This document shows, one piece after another, positions 1-64,000 of a stretch of 64,000 nt of DNA (position 1 is its first letter; every line of letters starts with the position of its first letter). Where the stretch lies: IMG/VR virus record IMGVR_UViG_3300042568_000774; one strand, given 5' to 3'. The notes below the pieces were generated by a model that had not been told where the DNA came from, did no database searches, and worked only from the letters and a program-made list of their open reading frames with translations. The stretch comes from a virus. Lineage: Duplodnaviria > Heunggongvirae > Uroviricota > Caudoviricetes. The position numbers were made by a program, and so were the translations under genes.

Positions 1-213
1 AAATCCTCCAAGTTGGATTTATAAATTGGAAAAATATCCTTCAGAGATAGTTTAAGTGTCTCGTCTATTTTTTTATTTGAATCTAACAAACTCTTAACTT
101 TTCCACTAACAAAATCATAAATTAAGTTTGTAAATGGGATTGACGCTCGAGATACCCCCAAGTCCTCCTTAAGTAATTTTTTATATTGAGATTCAGTTAT
201 TACTATTTTCATA

Positions 214-942
214 TTGATAAATACTTTGATATTTCATATCATTAATGAAATACATAAAATTATGATAAAAAATACAACACCTTACATCGGTAAAATCAGA
301 TTAAAATTTGAAAAATACCCTGAATACACCGGGAAATCAAAATTAAATAAAATTCATTTAGATTTAGGTTTCACCAAATTGGTATCAAGAATCACACCTC
401 TACAGAATTTAGAAGGGTGGTTGATTAACCCTGAATCAATTTATTTAATAAACAAATATACCGGAGGAATAATTAAAGACCATACATTTGGTGATAACAA
501 TGAACACTCATTACCAAATTCATTCTTATCTAAAGATGGAACTTACATCGGTGATGTTGATAGAGGTTGGTGGTATTATAAAAACAATATGAAAGTTTGT
601 GACCAATACCCACACGGAGTTGCCGAACGTTATGATGATGAAGATAACCTAATTGGTTATCACGGATATTCTCATAGAGGTGGTCAAACATTCAAAATTG
701 GTGATAGATTATTTGACGCGTCTTATAAACCAAAAGAAGAAGATTATGAAGAGTGGGAATGGGCCGGATGGCAATTAAAATTTGAAGAATCGCATTCCAA
801 AGGTGATGATTTAGATAAAAAATGGATGGACAAAGAAGGAATTGGTTATGTCATACCATTTAACAAACGAGGTAGTAAAGTTATTGATAATTTTGAAGAA
901 TGTCTTCAAGCGGCAATTAATATGTCTAAAGACCTATCATAA
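214..942 (+). CDS. hypothetical protein (242 aa)
   Basis: Long ORF with W/Y/D-rich composition. Followed by a hairpin terminator at 941-975. No recognisable domain. Confidence 0.5.
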   Translation: MINTLIFHIINEIHKIMIKNTTPYIGKIRLKFEKYPEYTGKSKLNKIHLDLGFTKLVSRITPLQNLEGWLINPESIYLINKYTGGIIKDHTFGDNNEHSLPNSFLSKDGTYIGDVDRGWWYYKNNMKVCDQYPHGVAERYDDEDNLIGYHGYSHRGGQTFKIGDRLFDASYKPKEEDYEEWEWAGWQLKFEESHSKGDDLDKKWMDKEGIGYVIPFNKRGSKVIDNFEECLQAAINMSKDLS

Positions 943-975
943 AAAAAGAACCCCCTTAATTGGGGGGTTTGTTTA
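941..975. terminator. bidirectional rho-independent terminator (AAAAAAAGAACCCCCTTAATTGGGGGGTTTGTTT)
   Basis: An A-run, a C5 and G6 inverted repeat with a TTAATT loop, then a T-rich run. It lies between convergent ORFs 214..942(+) and 973..1245(-). The shadow ORF 842..1024 is simply this hairpin translated (KTPLIGGF). Confidence 0.7.
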
Positions 976-1245
976 TCTTCTTCTTCTTATAAATCTATAT
1001 TCTTCTTTGAATCGTTTAATATAATCAGGTAATTTAATTGGTTCTTTTTCTTCTTTTTTAGGAGGTCTTTCACTTTTAATTTTAATAATGTTATATTCTT
1101 CTTTGAATTTTTTAACATACTCGGGTATTTTAATTGGTTCCCCTTCTTCTTTTTTACCCCCCTTTTCAGGTATAACAACAGCACGATTATACTCCTTAAG
1201 AAAGTCCATATTGATTTGTTTTTCTTCTAATATTTTCTCAACCAT
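973..1245 (-). CDS. K/E-rich small protein with a tandem 32-33 aa repeat (PKKEE.EPIK.P.Y.K.FKEEY x2)
   Basis: The ORF overlies a tandem nucleotide repeat of about 96 bp at 1000-1200. The coding status is uncertain. Confidence 0.4.
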   Translation of the reverse strand: MVEKILEEKQINMDFLKEYNRAVVIPEKGGKKEEGEPIKIPEYVKKFKEEYNIIKIKSERPPKKEEKEPIKLPDYIKRFKEEYRFIRRRR

Positions 1246-1260
1246 TTAAATTGTTTTTTA

Positions 1261-2082
1261 TTACTTCAATAAGTTATAGTATTCTTTAAAGTGTTTGATT
1301 CTATCAGGTAATCCAATAGTTCCACCATTTACTCTTTTAGTTACTGCAGTTACAGTAGCGTCGTCAGCACCTTTATCACAAATAGACCAAAGTTTATTTG
1401 AGTCAAAGAAGAATGCCGCAGAAGCTAATGGGTATTTTGTTGCAACTAAATCAGGATTAGATACAGTATCTTCACCAATAAATTTAGCAAAGTTTGTGTA
1501 GTTTGATTTCCCTGTTAATTGGATATAACCACGACCTCTGAATTTGAAACCGTCTTTTGTTGATTCATCACCATTACCCATTCTTCCACCATACACTTTT
1601 GATGCAATTTTTTCAGGGTTTCTTGCGTAAGATTCCGCTAAGTTACCCGGGAAATATTTTGGGAATATCTTTTTAAGACCATCCGCAGAATAGTTAACAT
1701 TTTCTGATACCGCTTTGAACCCACCTGATTCGTGACCACATTGAGCCAAGAAGTGAGCTAATCTTAATGCGTTTGTAATATTGAATTTTTTTGCAGTGTC
1801 AGGAATCTGAGCAATTACTGCCTCAGGGATATGTCCTTTTAATTTTTCTAATTTGAATGGTCCACCTGTTGGGATAACTACATCTTCTTTGATTATTTCA
1901 CCCGGAAACATTTTTTTCCAAGTTCCTTCACCAACGATTCCATCAGCAGTTAATCCATTTTTAGTTTGCCAGTCTTTAACTAACTTTTCAGTACCAGGTC
2001 CGAACACACCATCAGCGGCCGTACCTAATTTTGTTTGTAATTTTTTTACGTCGTCTCCTTTAGACCCTACTTTTAATAACAT
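1261..2082 (-). CDS. endolysin / peptidoglycan hydrolase: N-terminal PG_binding_1-like repeats plus a GH19/lysozyme-like catalytic domain
   Basis: The N-terminus reads LQTKLGTAADGVFGPGTEKLV...GLTADGIVGEGTW, a peptidoglycan-binding repeat. The motif LAHFLAQCGHESGGF is typical of the GH19-like phage lysin family. An ATG is confirmed at 2082. Confidence 0.7.
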   Translation of the reverse strand: MLLKVGSKGDDVKKLQTKLGTAADGVFGPGTEKLVKDWQTKNGLTADGIVGEGTWKKMFPGEIIKEDVVIPTGGPFKLEKLKGHIPEAVIAQIPDTAKKFNITNALRLAHFLAQCGHESGGFKAVSENVNYSADGLKKIFPKYFPGNLAESYARNPEKIASKVYGGRMGNGDESTKDGFKFRGRGYIQLTGKSNYTNFAKFIGEDTVSNPDLVATKYPLASAAFFFDSNKLWSICDKGADDATVTAVTKRVNGGTIGLPDRIKHFKEYYNLLK

Positions 2083-2125
2083 AATTTTTAATTTTTACTC
2101 TAGTTTATTTTTATTTATAAATATC

Positions 2126-3118
2126 TTAATAACCGATTGAAGTTGAATTTGAATAACCGGTATTAATTAAATAATAATTTGATGACCCTCCATTTACCGG
2201 AGAGTTGATTGTTATACTTTGAACACCCGGATATGTTATTCGTAAATCCGTTGTTGATGTGTTTATTATATTGTATTGAGCCGCAGTGAAAAGTCGTGTA
2301 TTAGGTAACAAATCATTCCAAGTGGGTAATCTACCTATCCTTTTCATAAAAATGTGATATGCGTCAGATATGTTAATTCTACCATCATTATTTACATCAT
2401 AACGATAATAATCCAATGATGTGAATGTTCTTGAGATTGCTTTGGTGTTTGCGCCATAAGCGTCACTATTTTGTAATGTTGTTACCGGAGTTGGTACGTC
2501 AATTTGAAGATACCATTCAATCGAAGGATTAGATACTTCATTAATCACATATCTACCATTAGCATCTGTATATACGGTTTTAACATACTCCCAATTTGTA
2601 AATGTTACAATATATTCAAATTCTAACACATAAGGTAATGATACATTAGGCAAATCATTCCATTTACCACCCCCAACAAACTGAATGTAATCTTCATTAT
2701 TTGAGTTATTTGGTTCACCACCATTCCAGTTAGACCAACTAAACGGTTCACCCGTTACCCATCTCCATTGACCTTCTACAACTTCATCAGTCAATCCAAT
2801 CCAACCATTAGGCCATAAATTAAATAAAAAGTTGTTTTCGGCTAGTGAAGTTGATGTAACTAAATGACCACCCATATTTAAACAAGCCTGTCTCGCATCG
2901 GTCCAAGTCATAGAACCCGTAGACCTATAGTATGAATGTCCGTTATAATTGTTTTGAGATGTAAATCCGTTTAACGTTGGTGTTGTTCTTTTATATAATT
3001 TTACACCAACATTTTGAGCCCCACCACCTCCAGCGTTATAGATATAACCTGAATATGTAAAATTCTGACCAAAAGATATTGATGTGATAAAAAATAATAT
3101 AAAAAATAATTTATTCAT
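2126..3118 (-). CDS. secreted C-type lectin domain (CTLD) protein with a dockerin/EF-hand-like Ca-binding loop
   Basis: Signal peptide MNKLFFILFFITSISFGQ. Canonical CTLD motifs are present: CLNMGGHLVT, WIGLTD, GQWRWVTGEPF, NWNGGEPNN (EPN), EDYIQF, GKWNDLPN (WND). DVNNDGRINISDAYHIF is dockerin-like. Confidence 0.7.
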   Translation of the reverse strand: MNKLFFILFFITSISFGQNFTYSGYIYNAGGGGAQNVGVKLYKRTTPTLNGFTSQNNYNGHSYYRSTGSMTWTDARQACLNMGGHLVTSTSLAENNFLFNLWPNGWIGLTDEVVEGQWRWVTGEPFSWSNWNGGEPNNSNNEDYIQFVGGGKWNDLPNVSLPYVLEFEYIVTFTNWEYVKTVYTDANGRYVINEVSNPSIEWYLQIDVPTPVTTLQNSDAYGANTKAISRTFTSLDYYRYDVNNDGRINISDAYHIFMKRIGRLPTWNDLLPNTRLFTAAQYNIINTSTTDLRITYPGVQSITINSPVNGGSSNYYLINTGYSNSTSIGY

Positions 3119-7311: not shown

Positions 7312-9201
7312 TTATTTTTTAATCAATATTTTAGAAGTCATTGGTAAATCTTTCTTTCTTAATACTGCGATATATTCACCACTAGGTAAATAACCTAAAT
7401 TTGACATGTAAGTATATTCTCCTTCCGGCATTGATTGATTAACTATTACTTTAATCTCTCTACCATCTAAAGAATAAATCCCTAACCATGTATTCCCGTT
7501 TTCTGTAACTCTAAATTTTACATTTACCAAATCATCAACAGGATTTGGATAAACTGTCATATCACCAATTAATTTTCCAATATTCCCAACTCTCATAATT
7601 TGAACAATTCCATCCGTTGGTGTAATTTTAAGGTCTCTTGCAAATGTATCACCAGCATGTTTTCTAGTCACATATAACGGACTTACCATCCAATCACTTT
7701 GAATTTGTTTTGAAATGAATTGTAGAGTAAACGCCAATTCATTGTCATTTAACAATTTTGTATTAAGTGTCGGGTCATATCCCCCCCATTCAACTACATT
7801 ATCGTTAGGATTCATAAATGATAACCAACCACCAATTTTAGATTCCGCTCTAATCCCTTTGAAATCTAATAATTCACTATTATAATTCATCGCCAATTGT
7901 AATGAACCTAATTGTCTTCCGTTTGTTTTAACTGATACCGGAACTTCAACTAAATTTTCTTCATTAACTGATAAATTTGGATAGTGAACCTCAATAGTGT
8001 TTAATGTATTATTATCATATGTTGTAGTAACATCGATAATGTGTAATGGTGCGTTAGCAGGATTTATAATTTCAATTGGTGTCATACGAGCCATTTGGAA
8101 TCCTGTTCCGTTTGCGTCACCCGGAGCTGCTACGTAGAATGTTACTGAGTTTCCTGCTCCTGGTAAGATGTTGAACACTAAATCAGTTACACCCTGAATT
8201 GTAGATTGTAATGAAGTTGTTGCTCCGTTAATAGATGCGTATTCTGAAACACTAAAGAATTTAATATCCTTAACCGAGTTTGGCCAAGAAGTAAATCTTC
8301 CTGATACTCTTCCAAATACACCATAAACGTCTGATACAGTAATGTTGTTATCACCATTTACGTCAGCCGTATAAAAATCAAATCCTGTAGGTGTATCTTG
8401 ACCTAACACGAATCTGTTAATTTTTTGCGAATCAGACACGGAGATAATATTTCCTGTCGCCAATGTTGAACCGTTAACTCTAATTCTAACATCCCAACTT
8501 GTGATGTCTATTGGTAAGTTAGTGAACGTAAAGTTACCATCAACATCTGTTGTTGAAGTTGTTACCGTAGTCCAAGTTGATGCGGTCATTAATTTTTTCT
8601 CTAAAATAACAGGAATGTTTTTAGCACCTGAACCAGTTACGTTAGTGAATGTACCACTATAAGAAAATGTTTGTGGTAAGAATACACCACCAAAGTTTTG
8701 TAATGTAAGTGCGTAATCCATACCCGCTTGATTTGTAGCTGTTTGTGGGAATGTTTGCACACCTGAAAAAGTCATTGGTGTTGTAGACGTTAACGACGCA
8801 AATCCCGCAACGTGAGTTAAGTTTAACTTAACAAACGCACCATTTGGTATCGTAAACGAGGATAAGTTTCCGGTATATGACATAGTGATTGTCACAAACC
8901 CCACAGCTGGATTATCCACAAATTGTAGATACTGTGCATAAGATGTGTTTAATGACGTAACGTTTGAAACACCTGAAAAGGTGTTTTTGTCATAAAACAC
9001 TCTGAATTGTGCTGCGGTAATAAGTTCGGTTGTGTTGTTGTAAAAACACAAACCAACTTCAGTATTACCAGCGGCTGTTGTTGCTATTTGATAGGTCGCA
9101 TCAAGTGTCACGAAAGCCCCTGTTGTAGTTGGGGTTGGACAAACCTGTGAGAAACCTACTAAACCAACAAATAAAAATAGTAAGGTTACTAATTTTTTCA
9201 T
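7312..9201 (-). CDS. large secreted protein with a T9SS C-terminal sorting domain (Por_Secre_tail-like) and a dockerin-like loop
   Basis: Signal peptide MKKLVTLLFLFVGLVGFSQ. The C-terminus ...VYPNPVDDLVNVKF...GEYIAVLRKKDLPMTSKILIKK matches the type-A T9SS CTD pattern. DVNGDNNITVSDVYGVF is dockerin-like. ATG confirmed at 9201. Confidence 0.7.
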   Translation of the reverse strand: MKKLVTLLFLFVGLVGFSQVCPTPTTTGAFVTLDATYQIATTAAGNTEVGLCFYNNTTELITAAQFRVFYDKNTFSGVSNVTSLNTSYAQYLQFVDNPAVGFVTITMSYTGNLSSFTIPNGAFVKLNLTHVAGFASLTSTTPMTFSGVQTFPQTATNQAGMDYALTLQNFGGVFLPQTFSYSGTFTNVTGSGAKNIPVILEKKLMTASTWTTVTTSTTDVDGNFTFTNLPIDITSWDVRIRVNGSTLATGNIISVSDSQKINRFVLGQDTPTGFDFYTADVNGDNNITVSDVYGVFGRVSGRFTSWPNSVKDIKFFSVSEYASINGATTSLQSTIQGVTDLVFNILPGAGNSVTFYVAAPGDANGTGFQMARMTPIEIINPANAPLHIIDVTTTYDNNTLNTIEVHYPNLSVNEENLVEVPVSVKTNGRQLGSLQLAMNYNSELLDFKGIRAESKIGGWLSFMNPNDNVVEWGGYDPTLNTKLLNDNELAFTLQFISKQIQSDWMVSPLYVTRKHAGDTFARDLKITPTDGIVQIMRVGNIGKLIGDMTVYPNPVDDLVNVKFRVTENGNTWLGIYSLDGREIKVIVNQSMPEGEYTYMSNLGYLPSGEYIAVLRKKDLPMTSKILIKK

Positions 9202-9937: not shown

Positions 9938-9973
9938 AGGACAAAATTAAATAATATTTATGATATTTCAAAA

Positions 9974-10171: not shown

Positions 10172-10182
10172 AGTAATAAATA

Positions 10183-11097
10183 CTATTCATTTTCAGACAT
10201 TTCAATTAATTCTTTATAAATGCTTTGTTTTTGTTTTTTATTCATCTCATAAGCTCTCGCCAATCTTGTTAAACCAATACCCGCTCCAAATCTTGGAAAG
10301 AAGTTCAAAGATAAGAATTCTTCCAATTCTTTTTCAACTCTGTCTTTTCCAAACAATTCAAACAACTTATCGGAATAACCCCCATCTTCAATTGTGTAAA
10401 ACATTTCTTTCATCTTTTTAACATCACAACTTCTCTCAGCAGAGCCAATAGTTTCTTGTCCAAACATAATCACATCCACTTTGTTAAAGATGTTATCTTC
10501 TCCGTGTTTCATATTCCAAAATGGATTGGTTCGTATTGGGAAGTTTTGAAGTGAGATAATATCACCTTTTTCTTTCCACATTTTTGATTCGTGTTCATCT
10601 TCTAATATTTTAACACCACCGTATTCCTCACACACATCTTCATAATTAACTTCAACCGGTGTTGTGAATCCTAAAAATTGTAACAATTCAAGTTCTAACG
10701 CAACTAAATCTTCCATAGTCCCTTTTGATTCAAATTCAAACATTGGAAAGATTAATTCGTGACGACCCGGGATTGGATTCTTTTCTTCTCTGTATGATGT
10801 TGAAATACAGAATACTCCATCCCATTCAGGATTTTTTAATAATTCATACTCCAACCACATTTGTCCGGTTTGAGGTAATGGCCAAATTTCACTACTATAT
10901 TCAAATGTTTTCACTGAATGTGGATTTTCGCAAGCAGCTAAAATAGATAATCGTGATTGAGATGGAACCTCAATAAAGTTCTTGTTAACAAAGAACGTTC
11001 TCATTTTTTGTACCAATTCGTGGTAAGTTTTTGTGTTTTTCATAGTTTTAATATTTAAGGTTAATTGTTCACATATGGGCAAAAAAAATCCCTTCAA
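10183..11097 (-). CDS. class II aminoacyl-tRNA-synthetase-like catalytic core / AsnA (aspartate-ammonia ligase)-like protein
   Basis: Motif-like segments match the class II aaRS core fold: FIEVPSQSRL, FCISTSYREEKNPIPGRHELIFPMFEFE, GAGIGLTRL. The length (304 aa) fits AsnA-like enzymes. Confidence 0.5.
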   Translation of the reverse strand: MKGFFLPICEQLTLNIKTMKNTKTYHELVQKMRTFFVNKNFIEVPSQSRLSILAACENPHSVKTFEYSSEIWPLPQTGQMWLEYELLKNPEWDGVFCISTSYREEKNPIPGRHELIFPMFEFESKGTMEDLVALELELLQFLGFTTPVEVNYEDVCEEYGGVKILEDEHESKMWKEKGDIISLQNFPIRTNPFWNMKHGEDNIFNKVDVIMFGQETIGSAERSCDVKKMKEMFYTIEDGGYSDKLFELFGKDRVEKELEEFLSLNFFPRFGAGIGLTRLARAYEMNKKQKQSIYKELIEMSENE

Positions 11098-11112
11098 TAT
11101 AGAAGGGATTTA
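11081..11112. terminator. hairpin terminator (AATCCCTTC-loop-GAAGGGATT)
   Basis: A-run then a 9-bp inverted repeat, downstream of the minus-strand gene 10183..11097. Confidence 0.55.
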
Positions 11113-11264
11113 CTTGTTAAGTAATATAATTGTTCGGCGTGTATAATTCATATCGTTTCATTGGTAATAAATATACTATATTCAGATAAAAAAACAAGTA
11201 TATTAAATTTTTTTATTTAAAATAAATTTATTTACAAAGATACTTATATAATTATTATTAAAAT

Positions 11265-11450: not shown

Positions 11451-11477
11451 CTATATTTATAAATAAAAACAAAAATT

Positions 11478-14474: not shown

Positions 14475-14497
14475 ATATTGAACTATATTTATAACAT

Positions 14498-16883: not shown

Positions 16884-16933
16884 AGTTATAAATATATCGG
16901 ATTTTCATAGTATTTATATATAAAATATAATAT

Positions 16934-21933: not shown

Positions 21934-22029
21934 ATCACAAATATAATAAAAATATTTTTAATAAAAAGTTGTTGTAATAAGATTTTTTATATATCTTTGT
22001 CCAATATTAATAATCTAAAACATTTAAAA

Positions 22030-23880: not shown

Positions 23881-23976
23881 ATATATAAATATAATATTTT
23901 TCCATTATAAAATAAAAAATCACCAATGAAGGTGATTATTTTCCACTAAAACAGGTATATTATCAATTATTTTCCA

Positions 23977-24270
23977 TTAAGGATTATGTAAGATATATGT
24001 TTTATCCTTTGTCAAATACTTAAAAATACAATTATCTTCGGTCACAAAAGGATAAAACCCCGTGATATCATTAATAAAATTATCAATTATTACTTCCTTA
24101 CCACTTTTTAATACTAAAATTCTGTGAAACGTTAATTGATTGTATTCAGTATACTTCACATTTTTAACAATTATTTCGTAATTTTTCTTTTTAGTGATAC
24201 GAACAACAAATTTAACATCCGGATATAATACTTTGATTAACTTTCTTAAACCATTTAATTTATCCATCAC
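23977..24270 (-). CDS. hypothetical protein (97 aa)
   Basis: ORF. ATGA overlap with the upstream gene. Confidence 0.4.
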   Translation of the reverse strand: MMDKLNGLRKLIKVLYPDVKFVVRITKKKNYEIIVKNVKYTEYNQLTFHRILVLKSGKEVIIDNFINDITGFYPFVTEDNCIFKYLTKDKTYILHNP

Positions 24271-24956
24271 ACCTTAAAAGGATTTTTATGTTTTATTTTT
24301 TCCGATATAAATTTATTTTCACTCATCACACCACAATTAAGTATTGGTTTTACGTCAACTCCAATGGACCAAGAAACAAACATTTGAGATAATTGGTCTC
24401 TACCACTATTTTTGGATATTTCTTTCCACCACGATTCATTAAACATTGTTGATTTAAGATTGTTTTTACGAATCATAAATCCTGTCTCAAATAATCCGTA
24501 ATTTCTTGGGAATGCCATTGAATGGTATTTGTTCATTTGTTTATTAACTATTTCAGGATAATCCAATTTTAATATTAAAACCACTTGTCCCTCGTCATAT
24601 ATACAATCTCTTTCAGGATGAGGAAAACACATTACTGACGAATTTCCAAAATTAATTTCCTTTAACAATTCATTAACTTCAGTAAATTTTGGTTCTAAAC
24701 AATGGTCAATCCAAATACTAATATCGTGTGGTGGTAACACCAAATGAGGATTCATTTTAATATATCGGGCTTTCTTACGATTATCTAAATTATCATTTAA
24801 AAAATCAACCAATTTAACTTCCCAAACATCGGATTTAAAATCATTGTCATCAGTAAATAAAATATAACGAACATTAGGGTCATAGTTAGTCAGAGGTATG
24901 AAATTATCATACCCCCCAATATTTGCACTATAAACTATAACTTTGATGTCAGACAT
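24267..24956 (-). CDS. hypothetical protein, possibly glycosyltransferase-like (start MSDIKVIVYSANIGGYDNF)
   Basis: The first 16 aa in the ORF track (MKTPLIGGF...) are the terminator hairpin at 24975-25003 translated. The real ATG is at 24956, preceded by a CCTATATTTATGTTT box. Function is a guess. Confidence 0.45.
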   Translation of the reverse strand: MSDIKVIVYSANIGGYDNFIPLTNYDPNVRYILFTDDNDFKSDVWEVKLVDFLNDNLDNRKKARYIKMNPHLVLPPHDISIWIDHCLEPKFTEVNELLKEINFGNSSVMCFPHPERDCIYDEGQVVLILKLDYPEIVNKQMNKYHSMAFPRNYGLFETGFMIRKNNLKSTMFNESWWKEISKNSGRDQLSQMFVSWSIGVDVKPILNCGVMSENKFISEKIKHKNPFKV

Positions 24957-24974
24957 AAACATAAATATAGGAAA

Positions 24975-25003
24975 TAAAAAACCCCCAATCAAGGGGGTCT
25001 TCA
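24975..25003. terminator. bidirectional terminator (AAAAAACCCCCAATCAAGGGGGTCTTC)
   Basis: C5/G5 stem. Confidence 0.7.
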
Positions 25004-25385
25004 TTAATCTTCAGATGACGCTATCAAGTAGTAGTTAATCCCTTGAAACTTGAAATAAATGTTTCTTAAATTGGTAACCGGTGGAGCGGCACTCCATAAT
25101 TCGGTTTTACCTGATTCATTATCCATTGGTTTCATTATACATTTCTTGTCCGTGAACTTAATTGTTCTTGTAATTTGTTCTTCCATACACTAATTTTTAT
25201 AAAAATAGTTAATATGTTTGGAACTGTAAATGTATTTTTAGAATTGTGACTTCAATCTTGATAATATTTCGTTGTTTTTATTCATTAGTTTTAATTTTTT
25301 TACAACGTTTCCTCTGTTTTTTTTAGGTTTTCCTTCTTTTTTTGATTTAGACATGGTATAAGTTTAATAATAAGTATATGTTTAA

Positions 25386-28531: not shown

Positions 28532-28578
28532 TTCCATAAATATTTGAAACTATAGAAATAATTCGTTATATTTGCTTT

Positions 28579-30397: not shown

Positions 30398-30412
30398 ATC
30401 AATAAATATACG

Positions 30413-35238: not shown

Positions 35239-35250
35239 GATAATAAATAT

Positions 35251-36605: not shown

Positions 36606-36625
36606 ATAAATAAATATACGACATT

Positions 36626-36680: not shown

Positions 36681-36728
36681 GAGACAATAAAAGTTGTATA
36701 ATTAAAAAATTATTTTTACATTTGTAAA

Positions 36729-37707: not shown

Positions 37708-37797
37708 AATATTTTTGATTTAATAATTTATAATACCCAAACATAGACATTTGACTTTTAATAGTCAAATCTCATATTCCGATATACGATATGACTA

Positions 37798-37850
37798 ATC
37801 AAAAAAAGGGGGCGGGGGGATTGACAAACGACCGAAGGGAGTCCGGTTTA
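37798..37850. repeat. GC-rich intergenic repeat, copy 3 (AAAAAAAGGGGGCGGGGGGATTGACAAACGACCGAAGGGAGTCCGGTT)
   Basis: Near-identical to copy 2. Followed by the terminator at 37863-37897. Confidence 0.7.
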
Positions 37851-40560: not shown

Positions 40561-41372
40561 ATAATAAACACTTATTTGTTAATAAATATAAGGGTCTAAT
40601 GTTTATTCTACATACTCATGGGGGGAATTGTTGATAACTTTTTATGTTAAATTTCTTGATTTTGTCAAAATGTCAGGTCTGCTTTGTGATGGGGATAATC
40701 CTTTTACCCACTTTTCCCCCCATTTAATGTGCAGGATTTACCACTTTTTACCACCGAATAGTGTCATGACGCTATGTCAGTGACCACTTTTTCCCCCCTG
40801 TAGGTACTCTCAGGACCAATAAATTAGGTATATACGTTTCCCAGTAAATTATGTTAGTTATGGTGTATGATGCGGTGGAACACGTAGTGTGTTAGGAAGA
40901 TTACTTCAACGACCCGTCAGGTGGTATTAATTGACCACTAATGGACGAACTCAATAGGGTATAATATGGGACACTACAGAGACACTTGACACTCTTAAAA
41001 GTTATGTTTCGTATCAGTGTAGTCAGTTTAAAACTCACAAGAATGATACAAAAGATAACTTACCATAACATCCACTAATTGTTCATTTCATTCCCTTGTT
41101 CATTGCAAATGAACATTATCTAATAATGAACACCATAACGGATTACTAATCGTGTCTGTAGTTTGTCCCCCTTCTTTGTGGGGGGGAATTGTTCCCCCTT
41201 AATGGGGGGGGAATTGTTTACTTGACTATTAATGGTCAATAGTAAAATGATTATAACATTAAAACGCTATAAAGTATGTTTATACCATAATATGGTTATA
41301 AAATAGTAAAGGATGAAACTATGAGTGAATTCCGGAGTGAAACGTAGGACTATGAACGAATAGATTTATCGT

Positions 41373-41846: not shown

Positions 41847-42001
41847 ACTAATAAATATAAAAAAAAGGAGAATGTTACTTCCCCCTTTTCGTAGTAAGTA
41901 TGTTTAATTACTCTGTATATTTTTTTCATAACTCAAATATATATAATTTCCCCCACGTTATCAATAGAAATGTTTTATCTTTGTATGATATTTATATTGA
42001 T

Positions 42002-42652: not shown

Positions 42653-42701
42653 TTCCCCACGCTTTTTGTTTATTTAATTTATTCTTCCTATCTTTGCTCT
42701 T

Positions 42702-45038: not shown

Positions 45039-45788
45039 TTATAGTAAATCAATAATGTCTTTAACAATTTCTGTTTTATTTCTTCTTTTACCATCCTCAT
45101 TGTACACACTTACAATATGTTTGGCAATCTCTTTGTTTTTAACATCCTCTTCTTTAGTTAATGGAACATACTTATTCCAATCATTCTCCATGTCTAATCC
45201 ACCCCAACCTTTCATTTCTTCAGTATCAGGTAAATCTTCCTTATCAAATTTTCCACCTTCACCTTGTTTCATTCTTTGTAACTTATCAATAAGCTCGGTT
45301 TCTTTTTCTTTTGTATGATTGTGGTTTCCACTTTGCAATCCTTGAATGATTTGGTCCATAAATCCTGTCCATCTCTCTGTGTTACCTTTTCTTAATAACT
45401 CCTCCGATTTTTCAGAATCTTGTGATGGCATTAATAAAATTACATTAGGATATTGGGTTAATAATTCTTTAACACCATCATTGTAAACGTGTCCCCCACC
45501 AAAATCTAATATTGATGGCGTATTGTATTTCTCAAAATCTGGTGATAAAACTGATTTTACCAACTCAAACTCTTTTCCCTCACCATAACCAAACTTTTCT
45601 TGTAACTTGTCAAGTATAACATACTCAACCCCAAGTTGTTGGGCAAGTTCTTCAGCTACGGTTGATTTTCCCACTGTTGGTGGCCCAATTAAGATGATTC
45701 TATTTGTTCCGGAATAACCTTTTTGTTCTTGCTCAACAAGTAATCCCATCATCTGTTTGATTCTATTTGTTTGTTCATGTAAGTTCAT
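45039..45788 (-). CDS. N-motif (MNLHEQTNRIKQMMG) fused to a P-loop kinase-like domain
   Basis: ATG at 45788, preceded by TATATTTATTATT. Walker A: RIILIGPPTVGKSTVAEELAQQLGVEYVILD, like shikimate kinase or polynucleotide-kinase-type P-loop kinases. Its stop abuts the downstream ATG (TAAATG). Confidence 0.55.
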   Translation of the reverse strand: MNLHEQTNRIKQMMGLLVEQEQKGYSGTNRIILIGPPTVGKSTVAEELAQQLGVEYVILDKLQEKFGYGEGKEFELVKSVLSPDFEKYNTPSILDFGGGHVYNDGVKELLTQYPNVILLMPSQDSEKSEELLRKGNTERWTGFMDQIIQGLQSGNHNHTKEKETELIDKLQRMKQGEGGKFDKEDLPDTEEMKGWGGLDMENDWNKYVPLTKEEDVKNKEIAKHIVSVYNEDGKRRNKTEIVKDIIDLL

Positions 45789-45855
45789 AATAATAAATAT
45801 AATGTTTGGCGGAATTGTTTTTATTTTATATCTTTGCACTACTAATAATGATAAA

Positions 45856-46224: not shown

Positions 46225-46283
46225 AAGTAATATAACTGAATAAAAATACCCTATAAACCAAAAACTTTTTGTATCTTTGACCT

Positions 46284-49169: not shown

Positions 49170-49192
49170 ACAATATAAATATCCCATAAATT

Positions 49193-49225
49193 AAAAACCC
49201 CCACTGTTAAGTGAGGGTTTATTTT
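49193..49225. terminator. terminator AAAAACCCCCACTGTTAAGTGAGGGTTTATTTT
   Basis: CCCCCACT/AGTGAGGG imperfect stem. Confidence 0.65.
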
Positions 49226-49992: not shown

Positions 49993-50411
49993 ATCTATAA
50001 ATATAACACGAGGGTAATTATTTCTATTTTTTACTCTTAAAAATAAAACGAGAGTAAATATTTTAATTTTTTACTCTCGTTCATATTACTTATTTTCTTT
50101 TTTTATTAGTTCTTTAACAAAACTTTGAAGTTCAAGTAATTCAGGGTCAGTTTCAAATAAATAACGAGTTTTCATATCATAGTAGTTCTCTCGGATATCT
50201 GATATACACCATCCAAGAAACACAAACCATAATTTAATCCTTATTTTTATTTTTTTTAACATCTTTAATATAATCTTTGATTGAATCAACTATTACAATT
50301 ACACACATAATTGCAACAATTGAAAACATAAAATATCCGGGTTCTACGGGGTCTTGAGGGTACATTTTTAAGTAATTTACAATAAATACTTTAATTAATG
50401 TAAATATTTTT

Positions 50412-50882
50412 TTATTTTATTAAATTAATAACTATAAAAGTTGCAATTATTCCAAAAATTAACCCAATTGTAAATGCTTTAATTGAATAATCTGATTTAA
50501 CTGGTTCTTCAACTACCTCAACAGGTTTTGGTTTGTTGTATTTCTTTCTGTAGTATGGTTTTTTCTTTTTAACCGGTTTGTCCTCAGTCGCACCCAATAC
50601 AGATTCTTTAACTATCACAGGTTTTGTTTTGATAACTTTTTCAGGGTTTACGATTACTCTTTTTTCTTTGTCGAATAATTCTTGTTCGACGTGTTCGCTT
50701 AATTTTCTTGAACTCATTTCGTTTGTTTTTTTGATTAATGTTAATGGTGGTGAAGGGATGAACTTACTTCCACCTTTGGATGGTTTTAAGAAACTCCAAT
50801 AATTCTTTTGGAAGTTGACTAATTGTTCCCGGTATTCATCCATTGATTGTCCGGGATATGGGACAGGTAATAACTTACCCAT
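50412..50882 (-). CDS. K/P-rich protein with a C-terminal TM anchor (156 aa)
   Basis: C-terminus AFTIGLIFGIIATFIVINLIK. Confidence 0.45.
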   Translation of the reverse strand: MGKLLPVPYPGQSMDEYREQLVNFQKNYWSFLKPSKGGSKFIPSPPLTLIKKTNEMSSRKLSEHVEQELFDKEKRVIVNPEKVIKTKPVIVKESVLGATEDKPVKKKKPYYRKKYNKPKPVEVVEEPVKSDYSIKAFTIGLIFGIIATFIVINLIK

Positions 50883-51088
50883 TAATATTCTGATTTACTT
50901 GTATCAATTACAAGAAAAGCTATTGCCGGGATGGCAAACATCACATTAACAGAAAACATTAAAATAATACAACCTATAGATAAAAGGTCGTATTTGTTCT
51001 TGACTATAAATTTTTTAAAATTATCCATAGCACAAAGATAAATAAAAAACCCCAAGAATTCAACTCTTGAGGTTATTTTTTTTAACAT
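50882..51088 (-). CDS. small membrane protein (68 aa)
   Basis: Two hydrophobic segments. Confidence 0.35.
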   Translation of the reverse strand: MLKKITSRVEFLGFFIYLCAMDNFKKFIVKNKYDLLSIGCIILMFSVNVMFAIPAIAFLVIDTSKSEY

Positions 51089-51420: not shown

Positions 51421-52140
51421 TTATTTTTTATGGAATTCAATAATATCCCACTTACCTTTTTTTGTTTCAACAAGTGCGGTACAGTTCTCACACCAATCCC
51501 CACTATTCATATAATTATCTTTTAACTCCGGCTGATGAATGTGTCCACATACGGCAACATCACATCCTTTTTTGTAAGTTAATAGTATTGCGTTATGTTC
51601 AAAATCATTAATAAAGTTAACGGCTTTCTTAACACCATTCTTAATATCTTTGGAGATGGAATAATAAGGTAACCCTCTCATCTCACGATATTTGTTATAA
51701 ACTCTATTCATCCATAATGCTAAGTCATAACCTATTGAACCAATGTGAGCCAACCATTTTGCTTTGGTGATGAATACATCCAAAACATCTCCGTGAAACA
51801 CATACATCTTACGACCATCTATGGATGTGAAGGTATAATCCTCAGTGATTGTTAGATTGGATAATTGAAATGGAATAAAATCTTTCAGGAACTCATCGTG
51901 ATTTCCTCTGAGCCAAATAACATTCACACCTTTCTCACTCATCTTCATTATCTTTCTCAATACTTTGGTATGACTTTCCTTCCATTTCCCACCTCTTTTA
52001 AGAGCCCAACCATCAACGATATCCCCATTCAAAATTAAGGTCTCTGTGGTGTTTTTTTCAAGAAATTCTATAACATCGTTGGCTCTACTTGATTTAGAAC
52101 CCAAGTGAATGTCTGATAGAATTATTGTTTTGTATTTCAT
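51421..52140 (-). CDS. calcineurin-like metallophosphoesterase (LpxH/YbbF-like)
   Basis: ILSDIHLG ... LILNGDIVDGW ... WLRGNHDEF motifs. Its ATG overlaps the GT2 stop by 1 nt (TAATG). Confidence 0.75.
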   Translation of the reverse strand: MKYKTIILSDIHLGSKSSRANDVIEFLEKNTTETLILNGDIVDGWALKRGGKWKESHTKVLRKIMKMSEKGVNVIWLRGNHDEFLKDFIPFQLSNLTITEDYTFTSIDGRKMYVFHGDVLDVFITKAKWLAHIGSIGYDLALWMNRVYNKYREMRGLPYYSISKDIKNGVKKAVNFINDFEHNAILLTYKKGCDVAVCGHIHQPELKDNYMNSGDWCENCTALVETKKGKWDIIEFHKK

Positions 52141-52850
52141 TATGTCCAGTAATTATGTTCCTTTGTGAAGAACTCATCGTTGTTTCTATTAACCCAAGAT
52201 TTAATCATCATCTTAACCATATAGAATAAACCTTTGTTCTTGAATCGTCTTGATGTGGTATAAACAATTTTGTCCGCCACATAAAACTTATTTGGTTTTA
52301 TCTTTGAACTTAAATGATAATCCTCAGCAAACTTGTCATCCGAATTAAATCCTCCCAATGAATTGAATGCCTCTAAATTAAATAACATAAATCCTCCGAC
52401 CGCAAAGGGTGTAGAAAATTTGGTCAGGTATTGGATAACATCAAATGATTGATACACATAATTGTATTGACCATCGTCAGTTCTCATTTTAGTTGTGGAT
52501 AAATGATAATCATTTTTTTTCATTTGTTCAACAATTTCTTTCAATAAACTAAATTCCTTAATGAAAATATCTGCATCCAAAAATAAAACATAAGGTGTCT
52601 TTATTTTTTTGGTTCCGTTGTTTCTGGCTTCAGCGGGAAATCCTCCCTTAACTATCTTTATATTAATATTATTATGAAATGAATTAAGGATACATTTTTG
52701 TGTGAATCCATCGTCCGTTGAAGAATCGGCAACCATTACATTCACACCTTTGATATTGCTTTGCAAGTTTATTAACTCCAAAGTTTTCTTTATGATTAAC
52801 CCCTCGTTTTTACAGGGTATTACTATTGTTAAATCTTTACTTAAACTCAT
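52140..52850 (-). CDS. family 2 glycosyltransferase
   Basis: LTIVIPCKNEG ... VMVADSSTDDG ... VLFLDADIFI (DxD). The likely ATG is at 52850 (MSLSKDL), preceded by GTATATTTATAGGT. The ORF-track start at 52904 is probably upstream sequence. Confidence 0.7.
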   Translation of the reverse strand: MSLSKDLTIVIPCKNEGLIIKKTLELINLQSNIKGVNVMVADSSTDDGFTQKCILNSFHNNINIKIVKGGFPAEARNNGTKKIKTPYVLFLDADIFIKEFSLLKEIVEQMKKNDYHLSTTKMRTDDGQYNYVYQSFDVIQYLTKFSTPFAVGGFMLFNLEAFNSLGGFNSDDKFAEDYHLSSKIKPNKFYVADKIVYTTSRRFKNKGLFYMVKMMIKSWVNRNNDEFFTKEHNYWT

Positions 52851-52909
52851 ACCTATAAATATACCGGAAGTAAATTTTTGGTATGGATATTTATTGTTAA
52901 ACATTACTT

Positions 52910-56819: not shown

Positions 56820-57299
56820 ATGGAACCAAGTATATTTGAAAAAATGAGTGATAGAGTTATATTCTCAATATCTAAAGAAATTGTTAATGAAGTTGACGTA
56901 GATACTGTTGAAAATTCAGCTGATTGGATGTTTTATCAAGCCGTTGAATCAGTTTGTAAAATGTATTCAATTGACCCATCTATTCAAGACACTGATTTTC
57001 TTTTTAATATTATAAAATTAAATGAATCCATGTTTGATGAAGGTTCTCTAACGTCAAAATTAGATAGACCTACATTAAAAAATTATGAATATGATTGGGT
57101 TGTTACAATGAAGACAATTGTTAACGAATATTATAGAAACACAATTTCATTATACACCGATAAAGATGATGTTAATAGTGTTTTATATTCATTAAAAAGT
57201 GAAGGTACTTTAGATGTTTTTGATGGTGATTTATTTGAAGAAGACACTAGAGATAGTGAAATGTTAGACGATGAACTTGATAATGTAAGTCAAATTTAA
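56820..57299 (+). CDS. acidic hypothetical protein (159 aa)
   Basis: D/E-rich. Confidence 0.45.
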   Translation: MEPSIFEKMSDRVIFSISKEIVNEVDVDTVENSADWMFYQAVESVCKMYSIDPSIQDTDFLFNIIKLNESMFDEGSLTSKLDRPTLKNYEYDWVVTMKTIVNEYYRNTISLYTDKDDVNSVLYSLKSEGTLDVFDGDLFEEDTRDSEMLDDELDNVSQI

Positions 57300-57301: not shown

Positions 57302-58387
57302 CTATCCCTTATAATGTCTTTGGTATGATTTGAATCTTTGTCTACTTGATTCATCCTTATCAACCTCAAAAAAATATTTTTCAACATTAGGGTCATTAAT
57401 CAATTTAAGGTAATCACCATAAACTTGACTTCTATCAATAGATAATCGTTTCTTTACCAAACTTCTTTTAATACCTAATCCCTCAACATTTTTCTTATAC
57501 AACCAATAAGGTATTTTGATATAAACAAACCCTTCTTTACCTTCAACCGGTCCTAATATTTCTATTTGAGATTTTGGTAACTTTGAGAAATAAATGTAAA
57601 TATTATATGATTCAGCACCATCCATGAATAAACCTGAATTATCCAAAAACTCTTTGATATTCAAAACCTCAATCATATTAGGTAAATCTTTAGTAATCAT
57701 ATAAGCACCTATCATCGCCTTTTCTTCAGGAAGATAAACCAACTTATTAAAGTCAGGTGTAGTATCAACCGGTTCTTCTTGTTCATTTAATCTTGATTGT
57801 AATGGCGGATTTAACAAGAACTTTTCGTTAACCCATCTTCTTAATTCATTTTCAACAAAATATTCGGGAACTTCTTCATCATCCGGTTTTTCACTGGCAA
57901 TGTTTGCAATATGTTTCGCAAACTTAACTTTATATCTATCATCTAACATATTCATTAGTCCGTCAGAGATAAAAAAGATTTTAGATAAAGGGTCAGACAA
58001 ATTAATATCACCTTCAGCAATCTTAAACGATTTAAGAATTGCCTTACCCCAAAAGGTTTTATAGTTTTCTGTTTCAGTTAAACTTGGAGCTAATATTTTA
58101 TTTACCGCTCTTACAACTCCGGCAATCGCACCCGCAACAAATAGTTGAGGAATAAACCAAGGTAGTAATCTAATGGTAGCCTTTACACCACCTTCACCAA
58201 CGTGTTTAAATATTCTTCTTTTAGTTGCACTTTCAACTATGGCTTTTAATTGACCAAAAGTAATCTTACCTTGTGCCTTACAAAATTTCTCACTATCACA
58301 AATACTTTTGACAGTTGTTTTTGATGGCTCTACCTCCACGTCCTCTAATATTTTAGAATATTGAATTTCTTTAACTATAATTCTCAT
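57302..58387 (-). CDS. N-motif family protein, long (MRIIVKEIQYSKILEDVEVE..., 361 aa)
   Basis: N-motif variant. An ATATATTTATAAAT box lies upstream. Central hydrophobic segment LLPWFIPQLFVAGAIAGVV. Confidence 0.5.
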   Translation of the reverse strand: MRIIVKEIQYSKILEDVEVEPSKTTVKSICDSEKFCKAQGKITFGQLKAIVESATKRRIFKHVGEGGVKATIRLLPWFIPQLFVAGAIAGVVRAVNKILAPSLTETENYKTFWGKAILKSFKIAEGDINLSDPLSKIFFISDGLMNMLDDRYKVKFAKHIANIASEKPDDEEVPEYFVENELRRWVNEKFLLNPPLQSRLNEQEEPVDTTPDFNKLVYLPEEKAMIGAYMITKDLPNMIEVLNIKEFLDNSGLFMDGAESYNIYIYFSKLPKSQIEILGPVEGKEGFVYIKIPYWLYKKNVEGLGIKRSLVKKRLSIDRSQVYGDYLKLINDPNVEKYFFEVDKDESSRQRFKSYQRHYKG

Positions 58388-58418
58388 ATTTATAAATATA
58401 TTTGCAATCTAAAATATT

Positions 58419-59727: not shown

Positions 59728-59767
59728 ATTCTTGTTATATATTTGATAAATATGTATATTTATTATT

Positions 59768-62424: not shown

Positions 62425-62775
62425 ATGGCACACCCAATTATTCACGCAAAATCATCCGCCAAAAAGTTTGGTGGAATATGGGAAGATTATATCCACTTAC
62501 ATAACTGGTTGGATTCCACCAAAGGATGGTATGGTCATTCATTACATAGGATGTTCAGACACCATTCTGAAGGGATATTTGAGATGGAACAGAAGTTTGG
62601 TCCAATGTTCACAAATAGTGACGGAAAAGTCGTTTATACACGTTATGTGGGTGAACAACACGTAAAAGAGGATTGTTTTAATTACGTACCATCAGCAAAA
62701 GAATGGATATTAGCAATGGATGCAAAAGAAAAACCTGTTTGGATGACCCGAACTATGGAAATTAACGTAGATTAA
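62425..62775 (+). CDS. His/Trp-rich hypothetical protein (116 aa)
   Basis: ORF. Confidence 0.45.
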   Translation: MAHPIIHAKSSAKKFGGIWEDYIHLHNWLDSTKGWYGHSLHRMFRHHSEGIFEMEQKFGPMFTNSDGKVVYTRYVGEQHVKEDCFNYVPSAKEWILAMDAKEKPVWMTRTMEINVD

Positions 62776-62799
62776 TATATTTATAATAAAAAAAGATTT

Positions 62800-63501
62800 A
62801 TGAATATTCCCCAATTAACACCGGAAGAATTAAAAACCTTACAACTATTCGCATACTATTGTCGCTCATACGGAGCCGATAATGTTTATAGAACATATTA
62901 TTTATCAGCTTGTAGCAAAGATTGGGAAGATGATAGATGGTATTCCCGTGATGTAAATGGAGGTGTAGAAGGTTATGATAGAATAGATGAACTTATTGAA
63001 AAATTAGTTGATGACCAATCAATTATTGATAGATTTACAGAATGTGATGGTTCACAAAGAATTGAAGTTGAGATTGATTGTAAAGAAAAAAGTTTAATCA
63101 TCTACGCTTATCAAACTGTGTATGGAACTGAACCACACGGTAGTGATTACACTTTACCAGATATTAAATCTGAATACGGTGAAGAATATGCAAAAGCTGT
63201 TGAAGAATTATTCACTTATTTAGATGGAAGAGACGCTAGAGTTGAGTTTAGTGGAGGTGGTGACGATGGTTATATTGAAGATGATATGACAGTTGATGGT
63301 GAACAAGAGGATGTACCAAAACCTATTGAAGAATTATTATATTCAATGTTAAATAGTAATTATGCTGGATGGGAAAATAACGAAGGTGGTCAAGGTAGTT
63401 GGGAATTTAACTCAGGTGATAAAACAATATTCTTTGATTTTAACTACAACACCGAAGAAGAAGAAAGTGTTGACTTAGAAGATTACGAAATAAAATTCTA
63501 A
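62800..63501 (+). CDS. acidic hypothetical protein (233 aa)
   Basis: TATATTTATAAT box upstream. Terminator at 63502-63537. Confidence 0.5.
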   Translation: MNIPQLTPEELKTLQLFAYYCRSYGADNVYRTYYLSACSKDWEDDRWYSRDVNGGVEGYDRIDELIEKLVDDQSIIDRFTECDGSQRIEVEIDCKEKSLIIYAYQTVYGTEPHGSDYTLPDIKSEYGEEYAKAVEELFTYLDGRDARVEFSGGGDDGYIEDDMTVDGEQEDVPKPIEELLYSMLNSNYAGWENNEGGQGSWEFNSGDKTIFFDFNYNTEEEESVDLEDYEIKF

Positions 63502-63537
63502 AAATACAAAACCCTCACCGAAGTGAGGGTTTTTTTA
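63502..63537. terminator. bidirectional terminator AAAACCCTCACCGAAGTGAGGGTTTTTTTAT
   Basis: CCCTCAC/GTGAGGG stem with T7. Confidence 0.75.
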
Positions 63538-63729
63538 TAGTCAGGTTGGAAGTTCAATAATAAAATTCTAAAAGAGTTTTAAGTTTTGACCGTTTAGGTT
63601 TGAAAATTTGAATCTTGAGGTTTTAATGTCCGTCTTTATCACAATCATTTATCAATGCTCTCTGAATAATTTGTAAGGAAATGGTAGTTACCATCTTGTC
63701 TTATTAAATCCCTCCCGAACTCTGAACTA

Positions 63730-63966
63730 TTATATCTCGGTATTCTGATTATGGTTATCCAAAATATCCTGAATGTCCTCAATCTGTTCCTCCATAAATT
63801 TAACCATTTCATCTCTATCAACCACTGATACCTCAGCAGTTTTTACCGGTGGATTCTCTCTATTTCGTGAGTAGTAATCAGTACTCACACCTTCTGTACA
63901 ATCCAAAGATTTTAATCTTGCAATTGTAGATTTTAATTCAGACAATCTGAATATTTTATCATACAC
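63730..63966 (-). CDS. small hypothetical protein (78 aa)
   Basis: ORF near the window edge. Confidence 0.35.
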   Translation of the reverse strand: MYDKIFRLSELKSTIARLKSLDCTEGVSTDYYSRNRENPPVKTAEVSVVDRDEMVKFMEEQIEDIQDILDNHNQNTEI

Positions 63967-64000
63967 CGGAGTGTTAGCCTTGTGGATGTTGGTTTTAAGT

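Follow-up and report, generated by a model that had tools for sequence, protein, structure and literature searches.

A TATTTAT box before unit-initial genes of an uncultivated Bacteroidota jumbo phage, a probable promoter for leaderless or short-leader transcripts

Genes of the window and the upstream box

This analysis concerns a 64,000-nucleotide (nt) stretch of DNA from a Caudoviricetes virus (IMG/VR record IMGVR_UViG_3300042568_000774), referred to below as the window, and a short AT-rich box found upstream of many of its start codons. The GC content of the window is 31%, and its spacers are AT-rich. A heuristic call gave about 116 genes, mostly small, the majority on the minus strand. No tRNA genes were found in the window. 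The recognisable products are accessory: thymidylate synthase, ClpP, FKBP, metallophosphatases, glycosyltransferases, an endolysin-like chitinase/peptidoglycan-binding protein, SLT, endonuclease NS, an SPFH protein and a Tad6-like protein. A cohesin protein bears a type IX secretion C-terminal domain, which indicates a Bacteroidota host. No close phage relative was found in GenBank, where the sole megablast match was thyA of Flavobacterium phage immuto, at 82%. Window genes recur on JGI metagenome contigs (57-194 kb and up to four longer ones), whereas IMG/VR gave no exact match to the initial 50 nt of the window. Orthologues of a 361-aa window protein are present on IMG/VR viral contigs reaching 272 kb, and tblastn with this protein gave only weak matches, in unannotated megaphages of 635-735 kb. 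The orthologues in large phages, the Bacteroidota domain and the lack of a close GenBank relative indicate that the window is part of an uncultivated Bacteroidota jumbo phage.

Two forms of the box are distinguished. The A-type contains TATTTAT, and the exact 9-mer counted here is TATATTTAT. The G-type is the canonical TAHHTTTG. TATATTTAT occurs 25 times in the window, compared to 5.83 expected from dinucleotide shuffles (shuffle maximum 13). With start codons corrected as described below, 22 copies are located in the 7.3 kb of non-coding DNA (11% of the window) and three in the 56.7 kb of coding DNA, giving densities of 1.50 and 0.026 per kb per strand. The box noticed in an earlier reading of the sequence alone (the sequence-only reading) is thus enriched after correction for background, and all the sites at which that reading had placed the box do carry it. 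Spacing to the start codon sharpens the signal: TATATTTAT-N4-ATG was observed 11 times (0.125 expected), TATTTAT-N4-ATG 16 times (1.2 expected) and TATTTAT-N3-TATG 14 times (0.33 expected). In the 50 nt upstream of the 67 unit-initial genes, defined by an upstream gap of at least 20 nt, TATTTAT is present 36 times. Composition-matched shuffling within each 50-nt region gave 4.8, with a maximum of 13 in 1000 shuffles. Within co-directional spacers the box is found in sense and antisense orientation at a ratio of 17:3.

Position in the transcription unit is a strong determinant. A box of either form is located within 40 nt of the ATG in 43 of the 67 unit-initial genes, compared to 4 of the 48 tightly packed ones (Fisher p = 6.5e-10). 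The box had been described as preceding most starts, one per gene. This was an overstatement: the exact 9-mer precedes about 20 of the approximately 116 genes, nnTATTTAT is found within 40 nt of the ATG in 36 (about 31%), and tightly packed operon-internal genes are without a box.

An unbiased scan of 6-mers by offset was performed on 1917 ATGs that open reading frames (ORFs) in the window and 13 related loci. TATTTA at -11 ranks first, with 62 observed and 2.5 expected, and is followed by T in 62 of 62 cases, leaving no G at -5 in the A-type box. The same scan recovers TCTTTG, CTTTGT and TTTGTG one position nearer the ATG, a signal that corresponds to the canonical Bacteroidota -7 box. ATG follows after exactly 4 nt in 67 of 349 TATTTAT copies, and 62 of these 67 open ORFs of at least 60 codons. 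Start codons in this rigid class are ATG in 62 cases, GTG in two and TTG in none.

The 31% GC content and AT-rich spacers raise the question of whether composition or chance could produce the box, and about 5 of the 25 exact copies are indeed expected by chance. This explanation is refuted by the within-region shuffles (4.8 against 36), by the strand bias and the sharp 4-nt spacing, and by two results given below, conservation in orthologues and the lack of the signal in control phages of similar GC content. We assign it a negligible probability.

A logo was built from 59 non-redundant instances in the window and related loci. Beyond the TATTTAT used in the search, it revealed A at -12 (50/59), T at -13 (35/59) and T at -1 (52/59), and the full signal is tA-TATTTAT-NNN-T-ATG. 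A T-rich patch is present at -26 to -24, whereas a -33 TTTG element is not visible. The leading G or C of the sequence-only reading is not conserved, with a composition at -14 of A18 C3 G13 T25. Neither is the spacing a loose 3-6 or 3-20 nt, as had been proposed. Three classes are seen instead: a sharp one at 4 nt, a small one at 5 nt and a distinct one at 9-38 nt. In the rigid class, the A-type box is located exactly 4 (rarely 5) nt before the ATG of 17 genes, and TAHHTTTG is located exactly 4-5 nt before the ATG of eight window genes. Together, 25 of the 67 unit-initial genes (about 37%) show a leaderless geometry. In the distant class of about 19 genes, the fifth nt after the box is a purine in 18 of 19 and A in 16 of 19, which indicates that the rule relating the box to +1 holds with or without an ATG at that position.

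As the sequence-only reading had stated, Shine-Dalgarno-like 5-mers are absent upstream of all 116 genes examined (0/116). The leadered genes of the phage are A-rich upstream, with 50-68% A across -14 to -3, and not T-rich. T at -1 is also found in 70% of the other unit-initial genes, which have no box. A scan for E. coli-type -35/-10 promoters showed no enrichment (96, 135 and 112 sites; 105, 113 and 117 expected). No Rfam family was found at the gathering threshold, which together with the lack of tRNA genes indicates that the boxes do not belong to any known RNA element. Paralogy was considered as the main cause of the repeated upstream sequence and rejected: window paralogues are only 23-49% identical, over short stretches. 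Literature searches found nothing relevant on the 9-mer as a phage promoter, and no prior description of leaderless transcription in Bacteroidota phages.

Terminators, start codons and related phages

Terminator-like sites are enriched 2.5-4-fold in the window: per 20 kb, about 8-9 are expected, and the counts were 22, 37 and 20. They are located 0-25 nt upstream of the boxes of genes 23880, 24956, 30397, 30954, 31817, 32254, 41846, 49169 and 51028 (genes are named by the position of their ATG). At 24956, 30397, 41846, 49169 and 51028 the terminator abuts the box, leaving no room for another promoter between terminator and gene. Terminator-box-start composites are repeated at 30385-30445, 30961-31021 and 32259-32319. 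This arrangement, in which a stem-loop terminator is immediately followed by a promoter and the unit is repeated between accessory ORFs, is that of the PeSL elements of T4-like phages (PMC2839356, PMC4122927), although the promoter consensus differs and the start codon is here fused to the promoter.

This similarity suggests a different explanation for the recurrence of the box, a mobile or recombining terminator-promoter cassette whose identity is kept by recombination and spread instead of selection on each copy. PeSLs are terminator/early-promoter composites that mediate shuffling in hyperplastic regions (PMC4122927). The repeated composites and a 60-nt repeat upstream of two boxes are in line with this explanation, as is the nature of the box genes, which are ORFans, glycosyltransferases and homing endonucleases. 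Related genes also gain or lose the cassette with operon position, an anecdotal observation. However, the flanks of most instances are unrelated and only the 7-9-nt box and the ATG are shared, a stretch too short to be kept by homologous recombination, and the paralogues are only 25-49% identical. Spread as a cassette is moreover compatible with promoter function, not opposed to it. As the principal explanation we regard it as improbable.

Conservation in diverged relatives is confined to the box. Orthologues of the 361-aa gene share 60-79% amino acid identity, and their upstream regions are unrelated save for TATTTA(T) at the same distance and the ATG. The box of this gene (58387) is the only conserved upstream island in eight diverged orthologous loci. 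The A-type box and its spacing class are kept in orthologues of 16883, 31817, 49169, 49992, 52910, 59768 and 62800, and the G-type box in orthologues of 46284, 51028 and 56762. Genes 47015, 48262 and 42284, which are operon-internal in the window, are without a box, whereas relatives located after terminators (in loci L035, L036, L016 and L033) have one. The box therefore goes with the position in the transcription unit and not with the protein.

TATTTAT-N4-ATG is enriched in most of the related loci, and its ATG nearly always opens an ORF. The signal is essentially absent in Flavobacterium phage immuto (1 in 100 kb) and in a 40-kb stretch of megaphage LR756502 (one copy), both Bacteroidota-type phages of similar GC content. 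This suggests that the box is lineage-specific and not a general Bacteroidota or low-GC feature. The sequence-only reading had called the promoter phage-specific, which is shown only in this lineage-specific sense.

Immuto (NC_055915, loci L037/L038, about 65-75 kb) has a fixed-distance signal of its own, roughly GGTATCAATAATTA..TAAAAC..AAAGTT-ATG. At fixed offsets before ORF-opening ATGs, the 6-mers that make it up are each found 7-13 times, and the signal appears to be a separate promoter or leader cassette specific to that lineage.

Corrected start codons had been proposed at 36605, 52850, 49169, 24956, 33686 and 45788, and they are plausible. Terminator hairpins or the box are located within the supposed N-terminal extensions, and the orthologue alignments begin at the box ATG. 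In Pfam, the glycosyltransferase family 2 (GT2) domain starts at residue 8 of the 52850 version. The corrections rest on sequence logic, terminator positions, this one Pfam alignment and the orthologue alignments. Extensions that run through a box or terminator are probably wrong by 6-20 codons. Calls extended in this way include L040 1-105 (window 52140-52904, the GT2 gene) and the longest ORFs at 24267-25004, 45039-45839 and 50882-51088. The GT2 gene is 254 aa in the public call (L040) and 236 aa from the box ATG. Box-N4-ATG offers a simple rule for correcting starts that public gene callers set too far upstream.

A promoter with its start site at the AUG

We consider it probable that the box is a lineage-specific -10-type promoter that gives leaderless or short-leader transcripts and is often joined to an upstream terminator. 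A promoter had been proposed from the sequence-only reading, and its sense orientation, unit-initial position, abutting terminators and conservation as an island in diverged orthologues support that proposal. If +1 is the A of the ATG, the box would form a -10-type core at -13 to -5, followed by a 3-nt discriminator-like gap. T(-1)A(+1)T(+2) would serve as a pyrimidine-purine-pyrimidine (YRY) start element, in which the A and T, with the next G, double as the start codon. The conservation of T at -1 and the TAT fit such an element, which is described across bacteria (PMC12641261).

In the rigid class (17 A-type and eight TAHHTTTG genes), RNA polymerase is predicted to start transcription on the AUG or no more than 1 nt from it, and ribosomes would have to decode these leaderless mRNAs from a 5'-terminal AUG. 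For the other class, of about 19 genes, the same box would drive transcripts with A-rich leaders of about 5-35 nt. Where very short leaders had been expected earlier, the prediction for the rigid class is zero nt. Each box gene or short operon would be its own transcription unit, often bounded upstream by the abutting intrinsic terminator, and the composite terminator-promoter cassette would flank accessory genes and ORFans.

Published promoter geometry is our basis for inferring where transcription starts. In F. johnsoniae, the -7 element is T-12 A-11 T-8 T-7 T-6 G-5, located 4-5 nt from the transcription start (PMC6847099), and the F. psychrophilum promoter box is located at -12 to -5 (PMC9723704). 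Applied to TAHHTTTG-N4-ATG and TATATTTA-N5-ATG, the Flavobacterium geometry places +1 on the A of the ATG. The distance to this A is 4 nt from the G-type box and 5 nt from TATATTTA of the A-type, which would agree with the 4-5-nt rule if this A is +1. The phage box then occupies -12 to -5, like its Bacteroidota sigma-A counterpart, and is 4-5 nt from the predicted start. Its A-type core, TA-NN-TTT, is shared with promoters of the Bacteroidota primary sigma factor, sigma-ABfr (-33 TTTG/-7 TAnnTTTG). The upstream element is weak or absent, as in F. johnsoniae promoters; the logo shows no -33 TTTG. Eight genes of the window carry the canonical form at the place of the A-type box. The near-invariant bases T-12, A-11, T-8, T-7, T-6 and G-5 of sigma-A promoters are present in the G-type. 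The dominant A-type has A, then T, in place of G-5, and its best-conserved bases are shifted by one position. Host promoters differ also in placement: host mRNAs are mostly leadered, with median leaders of 24-32 nt, whereas the phage box is placed so that +1 would be the start codon.

The T4 late promoter, which depends on gp55, gp33 and gp45, provides a second comparison. It is TATAAATA at -13 to -6, with a weakly conserved T-13 (PMC1524935). Like it, the phage signal is a single short AT-rich box without a -35 element. With the A of the ATG as +1, the phage tATATTTA is located at -13 to -6 and identical at six of eight positions, and T-13 is again weakly conserved. The resemblance to both the T4 late promoter and the Bacteroidota sigma-A -7 box had been noticed in the sequence-only reading, and both geometries place the start on the A of the ATG. 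Unlike the T4 box, the phage box consistently has T instead of A at -9 and -8 and an extra invariant T at -5, and it serves accessory genes and ORFans instead of recognisable late structural genes. T4 late mRNAs carry leaders with Shine-Dalgarno sites. No homologue of gp55, gp33 or gp45 was identified among about 80 window proteins and the flanks, which together span about 84 kb of a genome exceeding 200 kb.

In computational work, the accepted mark of leaderless genes is a TA-like signal 10-12 bp ahead of the start codon (PMC3160421). The phage genes show a -10-like box at this distance, beyond chance and without Shine-Dalgarno sequences, similar to the leaderless genes of Actinobacteria and Deinococcus-Thermus (Zheng et al., 2011, PMC3160421), where a -10-like box is located at a fixed short distance from the ATG. 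The phage consensus is Bacteroidota/T4-like, not TANNNT. Promoters of the virion RNA polymerases of phiKZ-like jumbo phages (AR9 AAATATATATTAT-N6-G+1) also have a conserved AT-rich box with the start a few nt downstream, and the tetranucleotide TATG of the phiKZ late promoter is present in the window signal. Transcripts of AR9 and phiKZ have leaders of 26-491 nt and none is leaderless, whereas the geometry in the window would give no leader. The analogy with the phiKZ late TATG was rejected: transcription there starts at the G of TATG, which would remove the start codon here. No multisubunit (split beta/beta') phage RNA polymerase was seen in the 84 kb of window and flanks.

The fixed distance between box and AUG would also suit an RNA-level signal in the 5' untranslated region: a translation enhancer, a standby site for a ribosome independent of Shine-Dalgarno pairing, or a RegA-like operator, with transcription starting further upstream. 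A-6 and A-12 of the box match adenines that promote initiation in F. johnsoniae, T-1 is frequent in genes without a box as well, and the operators of T4 RegA, found in about 30 mRNAs, are A+U-rich stretches without structure that overlap the AUG (PMC3014915). However, the same box is located 9-38 nt from other starts, which does not suit a ribosomal signal that depends on spacing. The box is missing where members of the same gene families are operon-internal, and the leadered genes of the phage have A-rich instead of T-rich upstream regions. The abutting terminators mean that no upstream promoter would feed the box except by read-through. Immuto, a Flavobacterium phage, does not use the box, and the box fits two promoter consensus sequences in the correct register. 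We consider an RNA-level signal unlikely, and the enhancer that the sequence-only reading had offered as an alternative is disfavoured by the box-less operon-internal family members and the A-rich upstream regions.

Several points weigh against the promoter proposal. Pfam revealed no sigma factor or RNA polymerase gene in the window and 10 kb on each side; specifically, none was found by Pfam/PHROGs in about 80 window proteins or in the precomputed Pfam annotation of the 10-kb flanks, a search that covered the same 84 kb. No -33 element is visible, and the geometry behind the proposed start position comes from other systems. The lack of the near-invariant G-5 makes recognition of the A-type by the host sigma-A uncertain. 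In F. johnsoniae, adenines at the places of A-6 and A-12 favour translation, which, with T-1 in 70% of unit-initial genes without a box, suggests that part of the pattern could serve translation. In addition, in those Bacteroidota that have been studied, only 3.7-5.5% of mRNAs are leaderless, compared to the leaderless geometry of about 37% (25/67) of the unit-initial genes here.

As for the enzyme that would read this promoter, we slightly favour the unmodified host sigma-A for the G-type box and, for the A-type, a specificity factor that the phage encodes or modifies. This preference is based on the lack of G-5 and the match of six of eight positions, in the same register, to the T4 late TATAAATA. 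A more specific proposal, that the A-type TATTTAT defines a phage-controlled expression class of uncultivated 200-270-kb Bacteroidota phages, read by a gp55-like or other factor, while the canonical boxes are read by the host (early), is tentative, and we think it somewhat doubtful. If true, the factor would need no upstream element, and transcription would start precisely on the AUG. The mRNAs of dozens of accessory genes would be leaderless as a result, and their expression independent of the host G-5 code and of leader-dependent initiation signals. The canonical box beside the G-less box in the same spacers suggests a temporal or factor-dependent switch.

With the box, transcription units can be located across a large group of uncultivated Bacteroidota jumbo phages, in which hardly any gene has a known function. 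Leaderless mRNAs may come from about a third of the transcription units of this phage, in a phylum with a few percent of leaderless mRNAs and no Shine-Dalgarno pairing. If so, these phages would offer a natural setting in which to study 5'-AUG-dependent initiation on Bacteroidota ribosomes. Flavobacterium and Bacteroides genetics could also draw on them for compact promoter-plus-start parts.

Individual sites and neighbouring features

The rigid A-type boxes are located 4 nt before the ATG unless stated otherwise. On the minus strand, AGTATTTAT is found at 217-225 (ATG 212, leaderless geometry) and 10176-10184 (ATG 10171), and TATATTTAT at 16888-16896 (ATG 16883), where the box is kept in the L004 and L008 orthologues. 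The box at 23885-23893 (ATG 23880) has a terminator just upstream, at 23918-23937. For the box at 24961-24969 (corrected ATG 24956), the terminator 24977-25002 is within the extension of the longest ORF. AATATTTAT at 28536-28544 (ATG 28531) is divergent from the G-type promoter of 28579. The box at 30402-30410 (ATG 30397) is abutted by the terminator 30425-30442, and the T-run of the terminator 41861-41890 runs into TATATTTAT at 41851-41859 (ATG 41846). Further minus-strand boxes are located at 45793-45801 (corrected ATG 45788, a P-loop NTPase-like gene), 49997-50005 (ATG 49992; the L035 orthologue keeps TATATTTAT-N4-ATG), 52855-52863 (corrected ATG 52850, the GT2 glycosyltransferase) and 58392-58400 (ATG 58387, the 361-aa gene), the last overlapping the divergent promoter of 58419. 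GATATTTAT at 49175-49183 is 5 nt before the corrected ATG 49169, with a terminator upstream at 49195-49220, and the L004 orthologue has GGTATTTAT-N4-ATG. On the plus strand, TATATTTAT at 14484-14492 is 5 nt before ATG 14498, and the box at 59755-59763 (ATG 59768) is kept in the L001 orthologue at 45% amino acid identity.

Two rigid minus-strand boxes, GATATTTAT at 35243-35251 (ATG 35238) and the box at 36610-36618 (corrected ATG 36605), are preceded by a 60-nt C-rich/T-run repeat, AACCGGACTCCCTCCGGTCG..TCAATCCCCCCGCCCCCTTTTTTTGG. It is found in the spacers at 35248-35307, 36616-36675 and 37789-37848 (minus-strand sense), two copies being directly upstream of A-type boxes, and also in L035. Its fold is no better than that of shuffles (z = +0.47 and -0.53).

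G-type boxes, the canonical -7 form, are located on the minus strand at 9942-9949 (TAATTTTG, ATG 9937), 21938-21945 (TATATTTG, ATG 21933) and 51033-51040 (TATCTTTG, ATG 51028), each with 4 nt to the ATG. The last is abutted by the terminator 51048-51074, and its L003 orthologue has TATATTTG. On the plus strand, the distance is 4 nt for TATATTTG at 28567-28574 (ATG 28579), TACATTTG at 36717-36724 (ATG 36729, an HNH endonuclease gene) and TATCTTTG at 46272-46279 (ATG 46284), whose orthologues have TACCTTTG (L004) and TATCTTTA (L035) at equal spacing. It is 5 nt for TATCTTTG at 42689-42696 (ATG 42702) and TATATTTG at 56831-56838 (ATG 56844).

At 58385-58404 and 59738-59763, divergent promoters overlap back to back in spacers of 31-40 nt. 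Within CATATTTATAAATATATTTG, one strand carries an A-type box and the opposite strand a G-type box. Genes flanking such overlapping promoters may compete for polymerase.

Leadered A-type boxes on the plus strand are located at 11452-11460 (17 nt before ATG 11478, with a predicted 13-nt A-rich leader starting at A), 52886-52894 (GATATTTAT, 15 nt before ATG 52910 of the endonuclease NS gene, conserved in L001) and 62776-62784 (15 nt before ATG 62800). For the last, box and leader are near-identical in L001, where the proteins are 37% identical. On the minus strand, GATATTTAT at 30970-30978 is 15 nt before ATG 30954, likely the true start, and follows the terminator 30999-31020. The box at 31832-31840 is 14 nt before ATG 31817, and the L005, L006 and L016 orthologues keep it with a leader of similar length. 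The box at 32276-32284, after the terminator 32300-32315, is 21 nt before ATG 32254. The others are AATATTTAT at 33704-33712 (17 nt before the corrected ATG 33686) and the boxes at 34797-34805 (30 nt before ATG 34766) and 40582-40590 (21 nt before ATG 40560).

One minus-strand A-type box, at 11167-11175, is 5 nt before a 14-codon mini-ORF, MKRYELYTPNNYIT (ATG 11161). An intrinsic terminator at 11086-11111 begins 5 nt past its stop codon, and a class-II aminoacyl-tRNA synthetase-like gene (ATG 11042, minus strand) follows. This layout at 11042-11175 resembles a leader-peptide attenuator; no antiterminator pairing is evident in the region.

Homing-endonuclease genes (NUMOD/GIY-YIG, HNH) are preceded by box-N4-ATG at L011:16221-16964, L010:2119-2655 and window 36729-37154. 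This fits self-contained mobile expression cassettes.

About 15% of the window proteins, 89-361 aa long and otherwise diverse, start with M-K/R-x-I-I/V-T/S/K-E-S/N-Q/K, such as MKIIITESQY. A second set starts with MNL(Q/H)E-x-x-RI-x-x-MM. The two sets comprise 59 and 18 ORFs, respectively, in the window and 13 related loci. Window ATGs of such genes are 212, 23880, 26714, 27394, 27966, 28531, 32638, 36605, 47015, 47344, 47955, 48262, 48570, 58387 and 62374 on the minus strand and 42002 and 42284 on the plus strand, and also 41846, 45038 and 45788 (minus strand). Codons in the shared N-termini vary synonymously, which indicates that the peptide is what is conserved. The (I/L)xE within them may recall T4 prohead-protease or capsid-targeting sites.

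The product of the plus-strand gene at 214-942, 226 aa in public calls, has a Pfam match to Tad6 (E = 4e-13), an inhibitor of type I Thoeris. The match makes the gene a candidate anti-defence gene. The cohesin protein, which bears the type IX secretion C-terminal sorting domain, has 629 aa (7312-9201, minus strand). It has a 97-aa segment in common with a 330-aa protein with a C-type lectin domain (2126-3118, minus strand). In the immuto annotation, lectin and cohesin proteins are two genes apart. Three tandem 39-nt copies, 67-81% identical, are found at 30478-30598 within the gene 30451-30954, and their length suggests an internal 13-residue repeat in the predicted protein.

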